Source: Escherichia phage UAE_MI-01. From it: DNA of 44,281 nucleotides. Of this stretch, positions 5,749-35,347 are shown piece after piece; the first letter of the stretch is position 1; each line of letters starts with the position of its first letter. Made by a program: the position numbers and the translations under genes. The notes under the pieces are model-generated. The model worked only from the letters and a program-made list of their open reading frames with translations, made no database searches and was not told the DNA's origin. Where the stretch lies: the sequence record MW862804. One strand, written 5' to 3'.

Positions 5749-5903
5749 GCTATCCCCCTGGGATTGTGGCAGAGCAGGCCACCCGCTCGACTTCACGCTT
5801 CTAATATTATCAGCGATAAAAATAATCGCAAAATTCGCTTGCGTTGCGGGAATTGGTTGCGCTATATTGGTTGCACACCAACAGAGATATGAAGGAAAAC
5901 AAG

Positions 5904-15862: not shown

Positions 15863-16128
15863 TTGCTCAGTCTCCAGTGTTTGCTTACCCGCTCAACGGC
15901 AGGCTTCCGGCGTAATGTAATACGAATGCCAATTGGTTGCAAGGACGTTTTTATGGCTAACCCATGCTCCCTGGCGAACTGGTGCAAGTAGCGAGTCTGC
16001 GTTAATGGCTTCACATCATCGCGGTAGCACCAGAACACAGAATCGCCCTCATTCGCATTCTTAGCCCATATTCGTACGCAATGCAGTGGGATGCTCCACG
16101 AAAGGCGTTTTGCGCGTCTGCGGTCCAT
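15859..16128 (-). CDS. Hypothetical protein
   Basis: 89 aa; tightly packed in operon. Confidence 0.4.
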   Translation of the reverse strand: MDRRRAKRLSWSIPLHCVRIWAKNANEGDSVFWCYRDDVKPLTQTRYLHQFAREHGLAIKTSLQPIGIRITLRRKPAVERVSKHWRLSK

Positions 16129-16443: not shown

Positions 16444-16659
16444 CGTTCAGTCCTCTTGTTGGTGTGCAACCAAAATAGCAGGGTGCCAGGGTGAATGCAA
16501 CCAATATTAATCACGCGTATGAAAAAGTTGATCGCTATCTGCTGTGACTGCAAACTGCATTTCTCACCCTCCATTCTGCAACTCGCATTGGTTGCCTAGT
16601 TCATCGACGACCGCAATCCGCATCATGCTGCCGTGCGTTATGCAATCCTGGATTTTATG

Positions 16660-16850
16660 CAGTCTCAGACGAGGGGGGTGACAGACCCCCCGTCTAGTCT
16701 GAAAGACTGGGGTTTGTCCCGCTTGTCCCGCCCCCCCCCAGGCCGCGTCATCCGTGGGTGGGACGGGGTGCTGTCCCGCTTTGTCCCGCCCCTGGTCTGT
16801 CCCGCTTTTTGTCCCGCTTAGTTTATGCAGTTTTATTGCATAACTATGCA
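16660..16850. repeat. Noncoding module copy B: hairpin, mini-hairpin, GTCCCGC heptamer array (6-7 copies), C9 homopolymer, palindrome TTATGCA-gttttat-TGCATAA at 16823..16843
   Basis: Direct reading; about 85-90% identical to the junction copy over the conserved core. Confidence 0.85.
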
Positions 16851-16902
16851 CTATATTCACACTACACGGCAACCAATGCGACCGCCTAAAAGCCCATAAA
16901 AT

Positions 16903-16983
16903 GGCAACCAATGCGCGCAAAATTTAATCATTTACCGATATGGGAATTCCCATAACGGCAACCAATGCGCGCAAAATTTAATC
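16903..16983. repeat. Two 27-bp direct repeats GGCAACCAATGCGCGCAAAATTTAATC (16903..16929, 16957..16983) flanking a perfect 16-bp palindrome TATGGGAATTCCCATA (16939..16954); third partial copy at 16868..16882
   Basis: Direct reading; lies at and just beyond the 3' end of the primase gene. Confidence 0.8.
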
Positions 16984-19759: not shown

Positions 19760-19788
19760 TTGACTCCCTTCTGCAACCAATCTAATAT
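19760..19788 (+). promoter_or_regulatory. Sigma70-like early promoter (TTGACT-17 bp-TAATAT) with CAACCAAT motif in the spacer and a T10 tract upstream
   Basis: Direct reading of the -35/-10 hexamers and spacing. Confidence 0.55.
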
Positions 19789-22680: not shown

Positions 22681-22770
22681 CCGCTTAGGCGCAACCAAGT
22701 AGATTAGCAACCAAGCCGAACGGGGTGGCTTCCAATAACCCCGATACATGTGAAAATGAGGAATTGGAAA

Positions 22771-29268: not shown

Positions 29269-29349
29269 ATTGGTTGCATAACCGTATTGGTTGCATTATA
29301 TTGAGGGTGTCCGGTTTGGACGCCCTTTTTAATACCCGGAGACAGTGAT

Positions 29350-30734: not shown

Positions 30735-31201
30735 AACTACTGATTTGTGACCTGGATGGCGTTATTAACGGTTCAAGCGATGCGCGTGCCGACCTGGTGC
30801 CGGGGATAAAAACGAAATCCACCTTCTGGGCGAAGTGGCACAAAGCGCATATACGCGAAGATCTGAACATGGATATGCTGCCGCTGTTGCGCATGTATAA
30901 AGCGCAAGGCTTCGAGATCGCGTATCTGACAAACCGGCAGCGAGAATGTTGGGACACCACCGCCGAACAACTGGAAGTATTCCCGACAGGCCGGTTGTTT
31001 ATGCGCCACATGCTGGACGATACCCCGCCGCCAGAGTTTAAGGCGTGCGCCGTGTTCAAAATGGTCTGCTATGCGGACGTGTCGGAACTGGTCATCATTG
31101 AAGATTGCGAGAAGAACATCGCGGCAATTCGTCGGGCGTGCGGAGATTTGGTCCCGAAAATTTATGCGATAAACGTTGCAAAATTCACTTGCAACCAATA
31201 G
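30731..31201 (+). CDS. HAD-superfamily hydrolase (nucleotidase/phosphatase-like)
   Basis: N-terminal LICDLDGVI matches HAD motif I (DxDG). Confidence 0.55.
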   Translation: MKLLICDLDGVINGSSDARADLVPGIKTKSTFWAKWHKAHIREDLNMDMLPLLRMYKAQGFEIAYLTNRQRECWDTTAEQLEVFPTGRLFMRHMLDDTPPPEFKACAVFKMVCYADVSELVIIEDCEKNIAAIRRACGDLVPKIYAINVAKFTCNQ

Positions 31202-31264
31202 GTTGGTTGCACTATAGTAAACGTGTCGGGGGCAATACTGCCCCCTCACTAAAAGGGTAATACT

Positions 31265-31798: not shown

Positions 31799-32374
31799 AT
31801 GTACGGCGAATATGAAATATCGGGTAAACAATTCCACCTTGCGGCAATGATAGCAAGCATCGAGTTTGACCAGTGGCGATACAAGTCTGACGCGTGCAAG
31901 CAAAGCCGTCTGGTCGGTGTGCTGGGTGAGATGTTTGCGGGCATGTACCTCGAAGGGCAGGCGGGCGGGCGTAGCTGTATCCCGCAAGGTTTGCTAATGC
32001 GCACCGGCCTGTTTAGCGCTAACACTATCGACCGCGGCGATATTATCATGGTCGGCAAGCGCAAGGTAAAATCCGGTCCCGACTTCCGCGAACATGTGAT
32101 CGATGCCGTATGGACTTACGAGGTTAAAGCCACCAGCGGCATCCGTCGAGGACTGGTAGAGGCACGCTGCGCTCGCGAGTATCTTACCCGTCGCGTTGCC
32201 GGTGTTATCCTTGTGGGCGTAGATTTCGGGCAACATAGCGCGCACGGCGTGATCGAGGATATCGCGGAGCCATACGTGATAGTGAACGACTGGCCCCTGG
32301 TGGAAGTGGATGGTAAGGAATACTACGAAAGCCCGCTTGTGCGGCGCAAAATGGACTGGGAAAACTCAAACTAA
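31799..32374 (+). CDS. Hypothetical protein (possibly nuclease-like)
   Basis: 191 aa; D...EVK arrangement is weakly suggestive of a PD-(D/E)xK site; last gene before bidirectional terminator. Confidence 0.35.
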   Translation: MYGEYEISGKQFHLAAMIASIEFDQWRYKSDACKQSRLVGVLGEMFAGMYLEGQAGGRSCIPQGLLMRTGLFSANTIDRGDIIMVGKRKVKSGPDFREHVIDAVWTYEVKATSGIRRGLVEARCAREYLTRRVAGVILVGVDFGQHSAHGVIEDIAEPYVIVNDWPLVEVDGKEYYESPLVRRKMDWENSN

Positions 32375-32378
32375 AAAA

Positions 32379-32395
32379 GGGGGCCGCACGGCCCC
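32379..32395. terminator. Bidirectional terminator between replication module and tail fibre gene
   Basis: GGGGGCC-gcac-GGCCCC flanked by A6 and T-rich tract. Confidence 0.65.
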
Positions 32396-32401
32396 TTCTC
32401 C

Positions 32402-34018
32402 TTATTTACCTTCCAGCTTCTCCACTTTATGCAACAGGTGGACGAAGGCGGCACACAGATCCATCAACAGCACGTTACTATCCAAAGACAGCACATCGTC
32501 GGTATACCCGATCTCCTTGCGGTCGACTACAACCTCATTCCCTTCCTCGTCCACCCCCTTGACGTCCTCATAAATGGCGTAACCCGGCAGCAAATGCACG
32601 TATTCTGGGTCGATCCTTGCCAGGTCCTGCGCGATAAGGCCGTATCGCTGTACGTCCGACTCCTTATACTTGAACATTGCCGGAAGCCATTGGCGAACGC
32701 GGTTGTAGCTTTCCTCGCCGTCTGTGTATTGGATTTCTTTTTTAAGGTCGCGGTCCGATAGCGGCGCTTTCTGGAACTCGTTAACCGACGGGTTGCCGCT
32801 GTTACCGCTAATAAGCCTTTGGTCTGGCAAGAAGCGGAATAGCGCCTCAGTCACACCATTCTTCCACACATGGACGCGGTAGTCTGATACGTGTGTATCC
32901 CCACCCCTTACCAGGCCCGCGCGCGTCCAGTCCGCATACCACCTATACATCGTATGCCCAACCCAGCTATCAATCCCGTATAAAGCGTTTGACAGACTTA
33001 GCCCGTTAGCCTCTAGGGGCGCTAACTCTACTGAACTGCCGCCATTCAGGTGCAGCGCACCTAACTTAACTAAACTATCCTCGCCGACCCCAAGATTAGT
33101 GCGCGCAGCGGCTACAGTAGTCGCCCCTGTTCCGCCCTTGGTGATAGGCACTGTGTTCTCCGTAGCGACAGACCCCAAACCTAGATTTGAGCGTGCCGCC
33201 GATTGATCTGCTACGTCTGCCAGGTTCTGAGACGTCTTCATGAATTGCGTAGGGTCGATCGCGTTTTTGAAGTCTTCTGCTTCGTCCCGATACCCTTTCG
33301 CGGCATCTCTGGCGGCTTGCGCGTCAGTCTTCGCCGTATTGGCCTGGTCCCGAATAATGCCGGTATCCGTCCTGATCTGATTCGTCTGGTCCTTGATGGC
33401 TTGCGTATCGGCCTTAATCTGATTCGTCTGCGTCTTGATGGTGTTGGTGGCGTCGTGGATCGCCTGCGTATCGGCCTTGATTTGGTCGGTCTGCGTCTTG
33501 ATGGTATTGGCATCGTTCTTGAAGCCTTCGGCCTCATTGCGAAATCCTTGCGCGGCTGCTTCAGACGCGGCGGCTTGTTGTTGTAGGTTGCGCATCTCCA
33601 CCGGGTCGATCTGCTTCATTAGCTGCGACAGATATCCCCATGACATGCCCTGCATAACCTGCCCGTTAGGTAACGTCACTGTGATTTCTTCAGCGTCGCC
33701 AAAGATTGCACGCCAGTTGTTTTCGTCAGCGATCATCAAGCGCAACGCTTTTTGGGCCTGTACTGTTACGCCCATCGTTGCCAGAGACATGGTATCGCGC
33801 TTAACGCCATCCCACGCGAGGCCAGTTGCCGTGGGGCCGTCGAACGGCAGCACAAGCGTAAGCGCGGTGTCGCTTTCTATGGACGCGATTGCCACGGTGT
33901 ATGGGACTTGCCCTACCACCAACGTTAAGAAGTCGCCAGATGCAAACGCGGTAAACGTCGTGCCTACCCCGACAACCGCCTTGCTGTTATTCGTTACGGA
34001 TAGTGTACCCGCTGCCAT
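32402..34018 (-). CDS. Tail fibre protein with coiled-coil repeats and C-terminal intramolecular chaperone (peptidase S74-like) domain
   Basis: ATG 34018 with GAGGA RBS; repeated IKTQTDQIKADTQAI heptad-like units; C-terminal SDRDLKKEI ... GLIAQDL segment characteristic of auto-cleaving fibre chaperone domains. Confidence 0.65.
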   Translation of the reverse strand: MAAGTLSVTNNSKAVVGVGTTFTAFASGDFLTLVVGQVPYTVAIASIESDTALTLVLPFDGPTATGLAWDGVKRDTMSLATMGVTVQAQKALRLMIADENNWRAIFGDAEEITVTLPNGQVMQGMSWGYLSQLMKQIDPVEMRNLQQQAAASEAAAQGFRNEAEGFKNDANTIKTQTDQIKADTQAIHDATNTIKTQTNQIKADTQAIKDQTNQIRTDTGIIRDQANTAKTDAQAARDAAKGYRDEAEDFKNAIDPTQFMKTSQNLADVADQSAARSNLGLGSVATENTVPITKGGTGATTVAAARTNLGVGEDSLVKLGALHLNGGSSVELAPLEANGLSLSNALYGIDSWVGHTMYRWYADWTRAGLVRGGDTHVSDYRVHVWKNGVTEALFRFLPDQRLISGNSGNPSVNEFQKAPLSDRDLKKEIQYTDGEESYNRVRQWLPAMFKYKESDVQRYGLIAQDLARIDPEYVHLLPGYAIYEDVKGVDEEGNEVVVDRKEIGYTDDVLSLDSNVLLMDLCAAFVHLLHKVEKLEGK

Positions 34019-34098
34019 AGCTGAATCCTCATAAATTGGTTGCAATCCAGGTCGAGCGGTGTAATACTAAAACTCAACCAAATATAGGGGATGATACC

Positions 34099-34317
34099 AT
34101 GAAAACCTTAATTATGATTTGTGCGGTTCTTTTGTCCGGTTGCGCCAACATGCCGTCTAAAATCTGCGACGCGACATATGTTAATAGCGGCATGGAATAC
34201 TCGGTCCCGGTGTTCGGTGTTGCCGATTTTAGTGGGCATAAAATGCTGCGGGCGGGCTACCCGTTCAACTTCCGGTATGTTTCGGTAGACCACTTCAAAA
34301 GCACCACTTGCAAATAA
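34099..34317 (+). CDS. Small outer-membrane lipoprotein, Cor/Llp-like superinfection exclusion candidate
   Basis: Signal peptide with lipobox LLSGC; 72 aa; divergently oriented inside the tail fibre region; own RBS and terminator. Confidence 0.45.
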   Translation: MKTLIMICAVLLSGCANMPSKICDATYVNSGMEYSVPVFGVADFSGHKMLRAGYPFNFRYVSVDHFKSTTCK

Positions 34318-34333: not shown

Positions 34334-35005
34334 TCATATTCCATCCACGTTAATCGCTGTCAAAGCAACCCCAGTGTTTTGATACCCCGCGACGCTACCA
34401 GACCCCGCTTGTGTTGCCACGGCGTTAATCCGTGTTCCGCTTCCGTTGTCGTAAGCCCCTGCCCCCGCCGTGATCTGGATAATCTGCGGCTGCCCCTGTA
34501 CAAAGATCTGAATCAGAGTAGCGCCCATTAACATAGGTGATACCGCGTACTTACCTGGTAGCGTCTGGTCTATGTTAATCCCTCCGTTATTGCCGAAGCT
34601 GCCAACGGTGACTAAATCGGTGAGTACCTTGCTTTCGTTGGTTAGTATGCAAGTCCCGCTGGCGTCCCAAATAGCAAACCCCCATCTCGGCAGCGGTTGC
34701 GGGAATCGCGCGAATATGTACGCCGTGACGGTAAAATGTGGGTTATTCTGCCCCTGAATGCTTCCGCTAAATATAATCCGGTTACCTGATCGTGACGCCG
34801 CCAGGACGCAGCGGTTATTTGACCGCATAAACACCATCGCCGGATAGTTCGATGGGATATCCACGCCCCCGCTTGCGGTTTTATAATCAGCACCGGCGTC
34901 CACTGAATTTGCCGACACCTTAGCGTAGAGGACGAACGGCGTTGAGTTTGGCGTGACGAATGGGTTGCCGTTGTTGTTATCGATTAACGCGCCGAAGTTT
35001 GCCAT
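34334..35005 (-). CDS. Tail-associated protein (putative distal tail / fibre protein)
   Basis: 223 aa Gly/Asn/Ser-rich; downstream of J-like gene; GGAGAA RBS. Confidence 0.4.
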   Translation of the reverse strand: MANFGALIDNNNGNPFVTPNSTPFVLYAKVSANSVDAGADYKTASGGVDIPSNYPAMVFMRSNNRCVLAASRSGNRIIFSGSIQGQNNPHFTVTAYIFARFPQPLPRWGFAIWDASGTCILTNESKVLTDLVTVGSFGNNGGINIDQTLPGKYAVSPMLMGATLIQIFVQGQPQIIQITAGAGAYDNGSGTRINAVATQAGSGSVAGYQNTGVALTAINVDGI

Positions 35006-35007
35006 TT

Positions 35008-35310
35008 TTACGCTTTCTCCACAAAAACTACTACTTCACATTCTGACGCCGGGTAGTTTCCAATACCGACGCTGTTTGCCGCAGATACTGTTATCGTGTT
35101 CCCGCTGGCACGGATCGCCCGACCGACCGTAGTGCCGCCTACGTCCAGCGTAACCGCAAAACCTACTTTCATACCGGACGGGATATCGAACGACCACGCC
35201 CCCCATGTTTGACCTTGAGTCAGTTTAATAATTCCGACAACCGAGACAGGCTTGATCCCGTAGTTGTTTGGTCGCCCTTGCGCGTCCCATGTTGCGACAC
35301 CGAAAGCCAT
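35008..35310 (-). CDS. Small tail-associated protein (putative)
   Basis: ATG 35310 with GGAGG RBS after intergenic hairpin; synteny. Confidence 0.4.
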   Translation of the reverse strand: MAFGVATWDAQGRPNNYGIKPVSVVGIIKLTQGQTWGAWSFDIPSGMKVGFAVTLDVGGTTVGRAIRASGNTITVSAANSVGIGNYPASECEVVVFVEKA

Positions 35311-35347
35311 GCTATACCTCCAAAAGAAAGGGGCCGAAGCCCCTATG

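Follow-up and report, generated by a model that had tools for sequence, protein, structure and literature searches.

The gene at positions 32,402 to 34,018 of the DNA analysed here very likely encodes the lateral tail fibre of the siphophage UAE_MI-01, a fibre that would carry a self-cleaving S74 chaperone at its C-terminus. UAE_MI-01 is a published E. coli phage of the genus Dhillonvirus, and the window comprises the whole stretch of 44,281 nucleotides from its sequence record (MW862804). The domain architecture of the protein, its family, as judged from both sequence and fold, and the conservation of its catalytic dyad can be seen in the protein and its homologues, and the coordinates of the features are collected in Table 1. 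S74 chaperones on Dhillonvirus fibres have already been reported: the fibres of JLBYU60, another member of the genus, were described as having carbohydrate-binding ends and intramolecular autocatalytic chaperones (PMC12309495). The fibre described here is thus an ordinary one, with nothing new about it.

Table 1. Features of the fibre gene, its product and its flanks (positions are those of the window).
Feature	Position	Strand	Basis or remark
Lateral tail fibre CDS (predicted)	32402..34018	minus	ATG 34018-34016, stop 32404-32402; 538 aa + stop codon
Shine-Dalgarno GAGGA	34026..34030	minus	7 nt 5' of ATG; read from sequence
N-terminal domain, aa 1-135	33614..34018	minus	nearly invariant in alignment A1 (Dhillonvirus fibres)
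Alpha-helical coiled-coil shaft, aa 139-253	33260..33604	minus	heptad periodicity and single AlphaFold helix
Two 30-aa 'AARxNLGxG' tail-fibre repeats, aa 263-312	33083..33232	minus	NLGLG at aa 278, NLGVG at aa 308
Distal beta-rich tip, aa 337-420	32759..33010	minus	AlphaFold beta-strands 338-415; pLDDT 77-87 over aa 350-410
Peptidase_S74 intramolecular chaperone domain, aa 421-538	32405..32758	minus	Pfam, profile and fold; predicted release at Leu420/Ser421
Ser421 codon TCG, predicted nucleophile and scissile residue	32756..32758	minus	at least 90% conserved in alignment A2, nearly invariant in A3
Lys426 codon AAA, predicted general base	32741..32743	minus	invariant in A2 (42 sequences), nearly invariant in A3
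GC-rich hairpin GGGGCCGCACGGCCCC	32378..32397	T-runs on both strands	terminator scan of both strands
9-mer TTGGTTGCA, one copy	34036..34044	plus	in the 80-bp gap 34019-34098 between fibre ATG and cor ATG
Lipoprotein gene cor	34099..34317	plus, divergent from fibre	begins MKTLIMICAVLLSGC

The fibre gene and its flanks

A sequence-only reading of the window had placed a side tail fibre with coiled-coil repeats at 32402-34018. The open reading frame is present, although it lies on the minus strand, and the strand was absent from that reading. In a protein comparison, its product, with a predicted full-length mass of 58.5 kDa, showed 100% identity to a protein annotated in Escherichia phage UAE_MI-01 as 'putative tail tip protein'. 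A TTG at 34045, the extension proposed by the open reading frame lister, was considered as the start codon and dropped, because the Shine-Dalgarno sequence and the annotation of the relatives from ATG both favour ATG 34018.

Downstream of the gene, the GC-rich hairpin is probably a bidirectional terminator, common to the fibre gene and the convergent plus-strand gene 31799..32374, and in phage WF5505 a terminator is annotated at the equivalent position. No separate tail-fibre assembly gene follows the fibre gene; the probable terminator and the convergent gene come directly after it, and this arrangement fits with an intramolecular chaperone. Pfam returned no match for cor, for the 223-aa and 100-aa proteins of the RBP locus or for the convergent 191-aa protein.

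Identity as a lateral tail fibre

The proposal that the protein is a side tail fibre was supported by family, homology and location. The protein matches PHROG 1980, 'tail fiber protein' (2.8e-129), and its N-terminal part (aa 1-303) has 80% identity to the protein deposited for BASEL phage Oekolampad (Bas18) as 'lateral tail fiber protein', an identity that collapses past about aa 280. The closest genomes are those of Dhillonvirus (SSL-2009a, 88.8% nt and 91.8% aa), and SSL-2009a shares the order J, small RBP genes, cor, fibre. In Dhillonvirus, the BASEL authors place a lateral tail fibre locus 3' of J and the RBP genes, in the form of a suggestion ('we suggest'; PMC8594841). By orthology and place, the gene is assigned to this locus, and the sequence comparisons support the protein as the lateral (side) tail fibre of UAE_MI-01, with a predicted position in the virion and a predicted role in adsorption to glycans. 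Mass spectrometry of phage lysate has detected the orthologue of Dhillonvirus EE09 (CDS8) through 14 peptides.

In alignment A1, the Dhillonvirus fibre alleles range from 466 to 598 aa and differ in the number of 21-aa and 30-aa units; the fibre of phage mckay (424 aa) is without the coiled coil. The relatives in this alignment carry 1 to 4 NLGxG motifs, equivalent to 0 to 3 extra 30-aa units, and UAE_MI-01 carries one extra unit. The allelic mosaic breaks within this NLGxG repeat region. Most alleles end in S74, and some have PF25670 (Phage_tail_C_2) in its stead. Relatives with the same tip have been isolated on O157:H7, K-12 and other E. coli, and because these hosts vary, O157 specificity of the tip cannot be claimed.

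Shaft, repeats and tip

The N-terminal domain is the best-conserved part of the Dhillonvirus fibres in alignment A1 and presumably attaches the fibre to the tail. It is followed by a single helix in the AlphaFold model (aa 139-253), with a mean pLDDT of 74-96 in blocks of 10 residues and values above 90 over about aa 171-240. Fourteen heptads of the form x-[IF]-[KR]-x-[DEQ]-[TA]-x run through aa 158-255, with F, I, A or Y at position 2, K, R or H at position 3, and A, T or I at position 6. The periodicity power of this run was 1.38 at periods of 3.5 and 7, as compared to at most 0.05 at 3.6-3.67. This core heptad periodicity over a long helix identifies aa 139-253 as an alpha-helical coiled coil. 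The repeated units that had been noticed in the sequence are borne out as well: IKTQTDQIKADTQAI (aa 173-187) has a near-copy, IKTQTNQIKADTQAI (aa 194-208), and two 21-aa units of the coiled coil (aa 171-212) are identical at 18 of 21 positions. Direct repeats at a spacing of 21 or 42 nt (64-74%) occur in the DNA at 33363-33530; Tandem Repeats Finder, at a score of 30, found no DNA tandem repeat in the fibre gene, the repeats being clear at the protein level. The coiled-coil region also weakly matches that of T7 gp17 (E=0.014).

The AARxNLGxG repeat that follows the shaft is also present in two solved fibres, 9zd7 gp92 (E=7.5e-12) and 7z47 (E=3e-8). The beta-rich tip beyond it is presumed, by analogy with T5 pb1 (PMC4690869), to be the receptor-binding (glycan-binding) part of the mature fibre. 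In a tblastn search, aa 317-483 were 44% identical to the L-shaped tail fibre of Salmonella phage Stitch. The full-length AlphaFold model, a monomer, was mediocre as a whole (pLDDT 70.2, pTM 0.28), with poor stretches at aa 58-127 and 317-345.

The C-terminal S74 chaperone domain

The S74 domain sits at the extreme C-terminus (aa 421-538 of 538), after the shaft, the fibre repeats and the tip. The S74-like signature noted earlier, SDRDLKKEI, occupies aa 421-429 (nt 32758-32732) and contains the only SDxxxK of the fibre protein; PF13884 matched aa 421-474 with E=1.3e-8 and 35.4 bits, above the gathering score of 22. Among PDB sequences, a single-sequence search with the full protein did not find the classical S74 entries, and the C-terminal 152 aa alone had DT57C LtfA as their sole match. 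Because single-sequence searches missed these entries, a profile was needed. A profile of 42 diverse S74 domains matched DT57C LtfA (2.2e-34), the MyRF ICA (5.7e-15), 8jov (2.6e-10), S16 gp37 (3.5e-10) and the GA-1 neck appendage 3GUD (5.7e-5), the last in an alignment that starts at the Ser. The number of homologues recovered with the C-terminal 221 aa depended on the method, with 8 proteins in a word-indexed search and 93 in an exhaustive HMMER search.

Ser421 aligns with the Ser at the start ('SDERHK') of the fragment that is released in 3GUD. In the 7DC3 chain it aligns with the Ala of 'PADLRAK', which would replace the catalytic Ser there. The dyad of endoNF is Ser911/Lys916. In the fibre, Lys426 follows Ser421 at a distance of five residues (S421-D-R-D-L-K426), the spacing of the T5 pb1 dyad Ser1264/Lys1269 (PMC4690869). 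In T5, the oxyanion hole is provided by Arg1250 of a neighbouring chain. Such a 'sensor' arginine from the neighbouring chain is needed in both T5 and endoNF; the candidates here are R395 and R401, both conserved without exception in eight close relatives and located 20-26 residues N-terminal to Ser421.

Structure prediction gave the S74 fold. All seven Foldseek matches with E<=1e-3 were 4UW8, 7DC3 or 3GW6, with 4UW8 at the top. The domain was modelled complete and with high confidence, and its secondary structure, in which two short helices and strands precede a long hairpin (481-505) and a terminal helix (514-537), follows the order published for the T5 pb1 chaperone (PMC4690869). By sequence, dyad, modelled fold and C-terminal location, aa 421-538 are thus assigned to Peptidase_S74.

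Alternative readings

The S74 domain could be present and yet remain uncleaved, retained as a C-terminal trimerisation module in virions with an uncut protein of 58.5 kDa. Virion proteomics and fibre analysis are absent from the UAE_MI-01 papers, and many homologues have a longer C-terminal helix, with 15-30 further coiled-coil residues. However, Ser421 and Lys426 are kept in homologues down to 23-30% identity, which would be expected only if catalysis were under selection, and the modelled fold of the domain is complete. In addition, the uncleaved form of T5 pb1 fails in adsorption competition (PMC4690869), and retention of the domain would mask the binding site. We therefore consider a retained chaperone unlikely.

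Still less probable is that the protein belongs to the central tail tip and is not a lateral fibre, as its GenBank name, 'putative tail tip protein', would have it. Its first 73 residues do match PDB chain 23gd_B, a 'distal tail protein gp20', with E=3.3e-5, but the GenBank label was copied from ES18 by similarity, and the central tip protein has a gene of its own, that of the 1139-aa J homologue, which carries the FNIII-A_GpJ, Phage-tail_3 and Phage_Tail_Tip domains. A coiled-coil shaft, fibre repeats, a variable tip and S74 are combined in the same way in side fibres, among them T5 pb1 and DT57C LtfA, and it was as a lateral tail fibre that the BASEL authors deposited the orthologue and described its locus. 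The Pfam family name, 'chaperone of endosialidase', and the enzymes in which S74 was first found might also suggest an enzymatic tailspike, i.e. a depolymerase such as an endosialidase. This reading is rejected because the protein is without a catalytic domain, there being only about 85-100 residues between the fibre repeats and S74. Neither Pfam nor PHROGs gave a match to a glycosidase or beta-helix family, the fold matches were restricted to the chaperone and the T5-like tip region, and O-antigen hydrolase activity was not seen in DT57C fibres, whose chaperone is homologous (PMC4728585); a tailspike is hardly conceivable in light of these results. A lateral tail fibre with a cleaved chaperone is the reading that we prefer.

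Proposed assembly and maturation

The following scheme for the lateral fibre takes its trimeric state, chaperone mechanism, cleavage and glycan binding from endoNF, T5 pb1 and GA-1/phi29 gp12. Three chains would assemble into one fibre, the N-terminal domain docking on the tail tip region. The trimeric coiled coil would form a shaft of about 115 residues, roughly 17 nm, with the 'NLGLG' fibre repeats as a short linker between shaft and tip. At the C-terminal end, the terminal helix of the last 118 residues, the S74 chaperone, would trimerise, while the long beta-hairpin of the chaperone would pack on the tip and template its folding, starting at the C-terminal end. After correct folding of the trimer, Lys426 would activate Ser421, and autoproteolysis is predicted to cut between Leu420 and Ser421, freeing the chaperone as a 13.7-kDa fragment and leaving a mature fibre of 44.8 kDa whose receptor-binding end is exposed. 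The beta-rich distal tip would then probably bind a surface glycan such as O-antigen in reversible primary adsorption.

These predictions suggest that the annotation 'putative tail tip protein' be replaced by 'lateral tail fibre with C-terminal S74 intramolecular chaperone'. If the predicted maturation site is right, Leu420 is the true C-terminus of the receptor-binding tip, and the band expected in virion proteomics is about 45 kDa, not 58 kDa. The predicted tip C-terminus may be useful for expression of the fibre and for tip swaps that retarget O157:H7 biocontrol phages. The variation in repeat copy number and the mosaic break in the NLGxG repeats indicate where natural recombination swaps cassettes of tip plus chaperone, and these break points are sensible junctions for engineering. 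The general view of S74 domains and of siphophage fibres is left unchanged.

The fibre-cor intergenic spacer

What is least ordinary at this locus is not the fibre itself but the spacer that separates its gene from cor. A short upstream region with a motif had been attributed to the fibre gene, along with a lipoprotein gene separating it from the J operon. Both are present: TTGGTTGCA lies in the 80-bp gap, and cor, a superinfection-exclusion lipoprotein gene, does separate the fibre gene from the J operon. However, the motif points at cor and not at the fibre (at 34036-34044 it is antisense to the fibre and sense to cor, 55 nt upstream of the latter), and the divergent orientation of cor, on the opposite strand, had been missed.

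Genome-wide, TTGGTTGCA occurs in 10 exact copies as compared to 0.33 expected, and none of 100 shuffles reached 10; other copies form tandem or palindromic pairs just 5' of genes. The copy in the spacer is invariant in six Dhillonviruses, in which the spacer and about 30 flanking coding bases have a mean column identity of 95%, as compared to a nucleotide identity of 85-89% for the fibre gene. In a literature search, TTGGTTGCA was found only in unrelated primer sequences. A role as a plain -35 element was not established, a plausible -10 element following at 16-17 nt after only three copies (34036, 29270 and 16496). The only minus-strand match to a sigma-70 promoter for the fibre gene was CGGACA-16-CATAAT at 34138-34111 (9/12), and the region had 3 matches in total as compared to 2.7 in shuffled sequence; since this is the number expected from shuffling, no promoter is claimed for the fibre gene. 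It is conceivable, if rather doubtful, that TTGGTTGCA serves as operator or promoter element for a regulator that the phage encodes and that is as yet undescribed; such a regulator could coordinate the divergent expression of cor and the lateral fibre gene, among others.

Comparison with known systems

The fibres encoded at the same locus in other Dhillonviruses (SSL-2009a gp28, JL1 gp38, Oekolampad/Bas18, JLBYU60 and EE09 CDS8) are 80-92% identical to that of UAE_MI-01 in the N-terminal anchor and coiled coil, but differ from it in the number of 21-aa and 30-aa units and in the tip module. More distantly, endoNF of phage K1F (3GW6) and the GA-1/phi29 neck appendage gp12 (3GUD) have chaperones that also belong to MEROPS/Pfam Peptidase_S74. 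Their clients are enzymatic spikes with a triple beta-helix or beta-helix, whereas the client here would be a small tip below a coiled coil. The ICA domain of MYRF (7DC3) is homologous but stands in an unrelated context, a eukaryotic membrane-bound protein from which cleavage frees a transcription factor.

The closest parallels outside the genus are T5 pb1 and DT57C LtfA (4UW8; 8HQZ chain d), which are likewise side fibres of siphophages with a C-terminal S74 chaperone, and of which DT57C LtfA was the best profile match and T5 4UW8 the top Foldseek match to the UAE_MI-01 fibre. The Ser-x4-Lys dyad is the same, as is the order of secondary structure, including the long hairpin and the terminal helix, and the reversible binding of these fibres to O-antigen is the role expected here too. 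In contrast, the UAE_MI-01 fibre has 538 aa as compared to 1396 in T5 and 1076 in DT57C, it has a simple heptad coiled coil for a shaft, and its tip of about 85 aa is a candidate only for the 'bullet' fold of T5. Identity to T5 and DT57C in the chaperone domain is only about 16-30%, and the phage that carries the fibre is a 44-kb Dhillonvirus, whereas T5 and DT57C are Demerecviridae of 110 kb.

The lateral tail fibre carries a C-terminal S74 chaperone domain

The lateral tail fibre gene of UAE_MI-01, whose complete genome makes up the window, lies on the minus strand (ATG at 34018, stop at 32404-32402) and encodes 538 aa, 100% identical to the deposited UAE_MI-01 'putative tail tip protein'. 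The closest annotated genomes are those of Dhillonvirus siphophages, SSL-2009a (88.8% nucleotide and 91.8% amino acid identity) and next BF9, UDS3lw, JL1 and others. A sequence-only reading had proposed a repeat-containing fibre with an S74-like C terminus. Both peptides that it quoted were found, IKTQTDQIKADTQAI at aa 173-187 (near copy at aa 194-208) and SDRDLKKEI at aa 421-429. The S74 assignment was borne out by a Pfam match to PF13884 above the gathering score (aa 421-474; E=1.3e-8; 35.4 bits versus 22), by profile matches to solved domains and by conservation of the predicted catalytic dyad.

An exhaustive search by HMMER, with aa 318-538 as the query, recovered 93 representative proteins, most of which align to the last ~125 residues alone. 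Of 90 non-redundant C-terminal domains, nearly all have the Ser-x4-Lys motif, with SGRxxK and CDxxxK (5 sequences) as variants. In a 42-sequence alignment with a mean column identity of 33%, the Lys426 position does not vary, and conservation reaches 90% or more at Ser421 and Asp422. As a profile for structure-sequence search, this alignment matched DT57C LtfA (2.2e-34), the MyRF ICA domain (5.7e-15), 8jov (2.6e-10), S16 gp37 (3.5e-10) and the GA-1 neck-appendage chaperone 3GUD (5.7e-5). The crystallised chain of 3GUD starts at the Ser of SDERHK, which aligns with SDRDLK of the fibre. The sequence-only reading had named absence of an S74 fold in structure prediction as a refuting outcome, and this outcome did not occur: aa 406-538 were modelled with a pLDDT of 93.2 (pTM 0.74), and the only significant Foldseek matches of the full-length model were to the S74 chaperone family.

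In five distant homologues outside the window (P0168, P0172, P0179, P0185 and P0191), Cys replaces the nucleophile Ser and Lys is kept (CDITLK, CDIDLK, CDRDIK, CDIKLK, CDERLK). They are possible forms of the auto-processing domain with a cysteine nucleophile. SGRxxK marks a further group.

Fibre architecture and allelic variation

Residues 1-73 are similar to a chain whose deposited name is distal tail protein, and we infer that the N-terminal domain would serve for attachment. The shaft includes 14 consecutive heptads (aa 158-255; x-[I/F]-[K/R]-x-[D/E/Q]-[T/A]-x), among them the IKTQTDQIKADTQAI repeat. The hydrophobic periodicity of this heptad run has peaks at 3.5 and 7 residues and none at 3.6. 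The AARxNLGxG repeat that follows is shared with the solved fibres 9zd7 gp92 and 7z47, and aa 317-483 are 44% identical (tblastn) to the L-shaped tail fibre of Salmonella phage Stitch.

The fibres of relatives vary by whole repeat units, in steps of 21-aa (three-heptad) units (466, 487 and 508 aa) or of 30-aa NLGxG units (508, 538, 568 and 598 aa); the 424-aa fibre of phage mckay is without any coiled coil. Identity to the lateral tail fibre of the BASEL phage Oekolampad is 80% to ~aa 280 and then collapses, with a weak return (34%) in the S74 domain, which places the mosaic junction within the NLGxG repeats. A few Dhillonvirus fibre alleles, P0059, P0063 and P0066 among them, share the N-terminal anchor and the coiled coil and have a PF25670 (Phage_tail_C_2) end in place of S74 (2.2e-54 in P0059). 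Thus, whole tip cassettes, some with a built-in chaperone and some lacking one, are exchanged at the locus.

Features of the fibre, its gene and its surroundings
Feature	Position	Strand	Remarks
N-terminal domain	aa 1-135		almost invariant among Dhillonvirus fibres
Coiled-coil shaft	aa 139-253		single continuous AlphaFold helix, pLDDT mostly >90
Two 30-aa units	aa 263-312		AARxNLGxG end
Beta-rich tip	aa 337-420		moderate AlphaFold confidence
S74 domain	aa 421-538		
Shine-Dalgarno GAGGA	7 nt 5' of fibre ATG	minus	
GC-rich hairpin	32378-32397		T-runs on both strands; directly 3' of fibre stop; common to convergent plus-strand gene ending at 32374
J	38767-35348	minus	
100-aa gene		minus	between J and 223-aa gene
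223-aa gene	ends 34334	minus	
cor	34099-34317	plus	72-aa lipoprotein (MKTLIMICAVLLSGC...); divergent from fibre
TTGGTTGCA sites	5853-5875, 15933-15941, 16465-16504, 16588-16965, 19772-19780, 22690-22714, 29270-29295, 31190-31211, 34036-34044		
Compared receptor-binding loci of other phages	L003 3123-4017; L004 3302-4197; L005 3321-4286		

Transcription of the fibre gene and a recurrent upstream motif

The gene order is J, the 100-aa gene, the 223-aa gene, cor and the fibre gene. The lipoprotein gene therefore does separate the fibre from the J-linked genes, as had been claimed, but on the opposite strand, which had been missed. Its SSL-2009a orthologue is annotated as a Cor superinfection exclusion protein; the product has no Pfam match. 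Neither a convincing minus-strand promoter for the fibre gene nor a minus-strand terminator between it and the 223-aa gene was found, so that the gene is as likely to be read through from the late tail operon as to have a promoter of its own.

The motif assigned to the fibre in the earlier reading, TTGGTTGCA, is present upstream (34036-34044), but on the plus strand and oriented towards cor, which that reading had overlooked. Lying 55 nt 5' of the cor ATG, in the sense orientation that most copies have to their downstream genes, it more probably serves cor. It is not a chance word: the window holds 10 exact copies against 0.33 expected, a count reached in no shuffle, and 25 matches with one mismatch against 11.4 expected, mostly TTGGTTGC[C/G/T] variants. 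Most copies lie 30-65 nt 5' of start codons. Copies often form tandem pairs at 15-31 nt spacing or a palindromic pair (31190/31203). SSL-2009a and WF5505 keep copies at the same places, and in six Dhillonviruses the aligned fibre/cor intergenic region has 95% mean column identity, with the motif invariant. The motif resembles a promoter or operator element. No published description of it was found, and the recurrent TTGGTTGC(A) motif is the only mildly unexplained item.

Other features were observed nearby. A terminator-like hairpin (AGGGGCTTCGGCCCCT, then a T-run; 35329-35344, minus strand) lies directly past the J stop codon, ahead of the small receptor-binding genes, and may attenuate distal tail gene transcription. 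These genes occupy a locus (34334-35310, minus strand) with alternative alleles: UAE_MI-01 and SSL-2009a have the 100-aa and 223-aa genes on the J strand; in JL1, Pandora71 and WF5505 their place is taken by a ~321-aa DUF6453/'membrane protein' gene that runs opposite to J and adjoins the lipoprotein gene. The alleles probably reflect different terminal receptors, as described in the BASEL papers. Beyond the fibre, the convergent 191-aa gene (31799-32374, plus strand) stops 4 nt short of the shared hairpin; its product has no Pfam match, and its orthologue is annotated in phage UDS3lw as a 'restriction endonuclease' and in other phages as hypothetical.

Proposed maturation and comparison with known systems

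In T5 pb1, cleavage of the Thr1263-Ser1264 bond by Ser1264 and Lys1269 requires correct folding of the trimer, and uncleaved pb1 fails to compete for adsorption (PMC4690869). By analogy with pb1, the C-terminal helix of the chaperone would align three fibre chains in register and its hairpins would template the tip, after which Ser421 and Lys426 would cleave between Leu420 and Ser421, with predicted products of 44.8 kDa (mature fibre) and 13.7 kDa (fragment). No tail-fibre assembly gene lies 3' of the fibre gene, which fits a built-in chaperone. The fibre is a putative primary, probably O-antigen, adhesin, the role that the BASEL authors propose for the Dhillonvirus lateral fibre locus (PMC8594841).

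The sequence-only observation is thus confirmed, with corrections of strand and orientation, and its interpretation is supported. It is a correct reading of an ordinary feature of a published genome, one already described: phage fibres and spikes with S74 intramolecular chaperones are textbook knowledge (endoNF, phi29/GA-1 gp12, T5 pb1, DT57C LtfA/LtfB), and the proteins of close relatives are tagged 'Peptidase S74 domain-containing protein' in databases. The EE09 fibre orthologue was detected by mass spectrometry in lysate, and a 2025 paper describes Dhillonvirus JLBYU60 fibres as having ends that bind carbohydrates, together with 'intramolecular autocatalytic chaperones' (PMC12309495).
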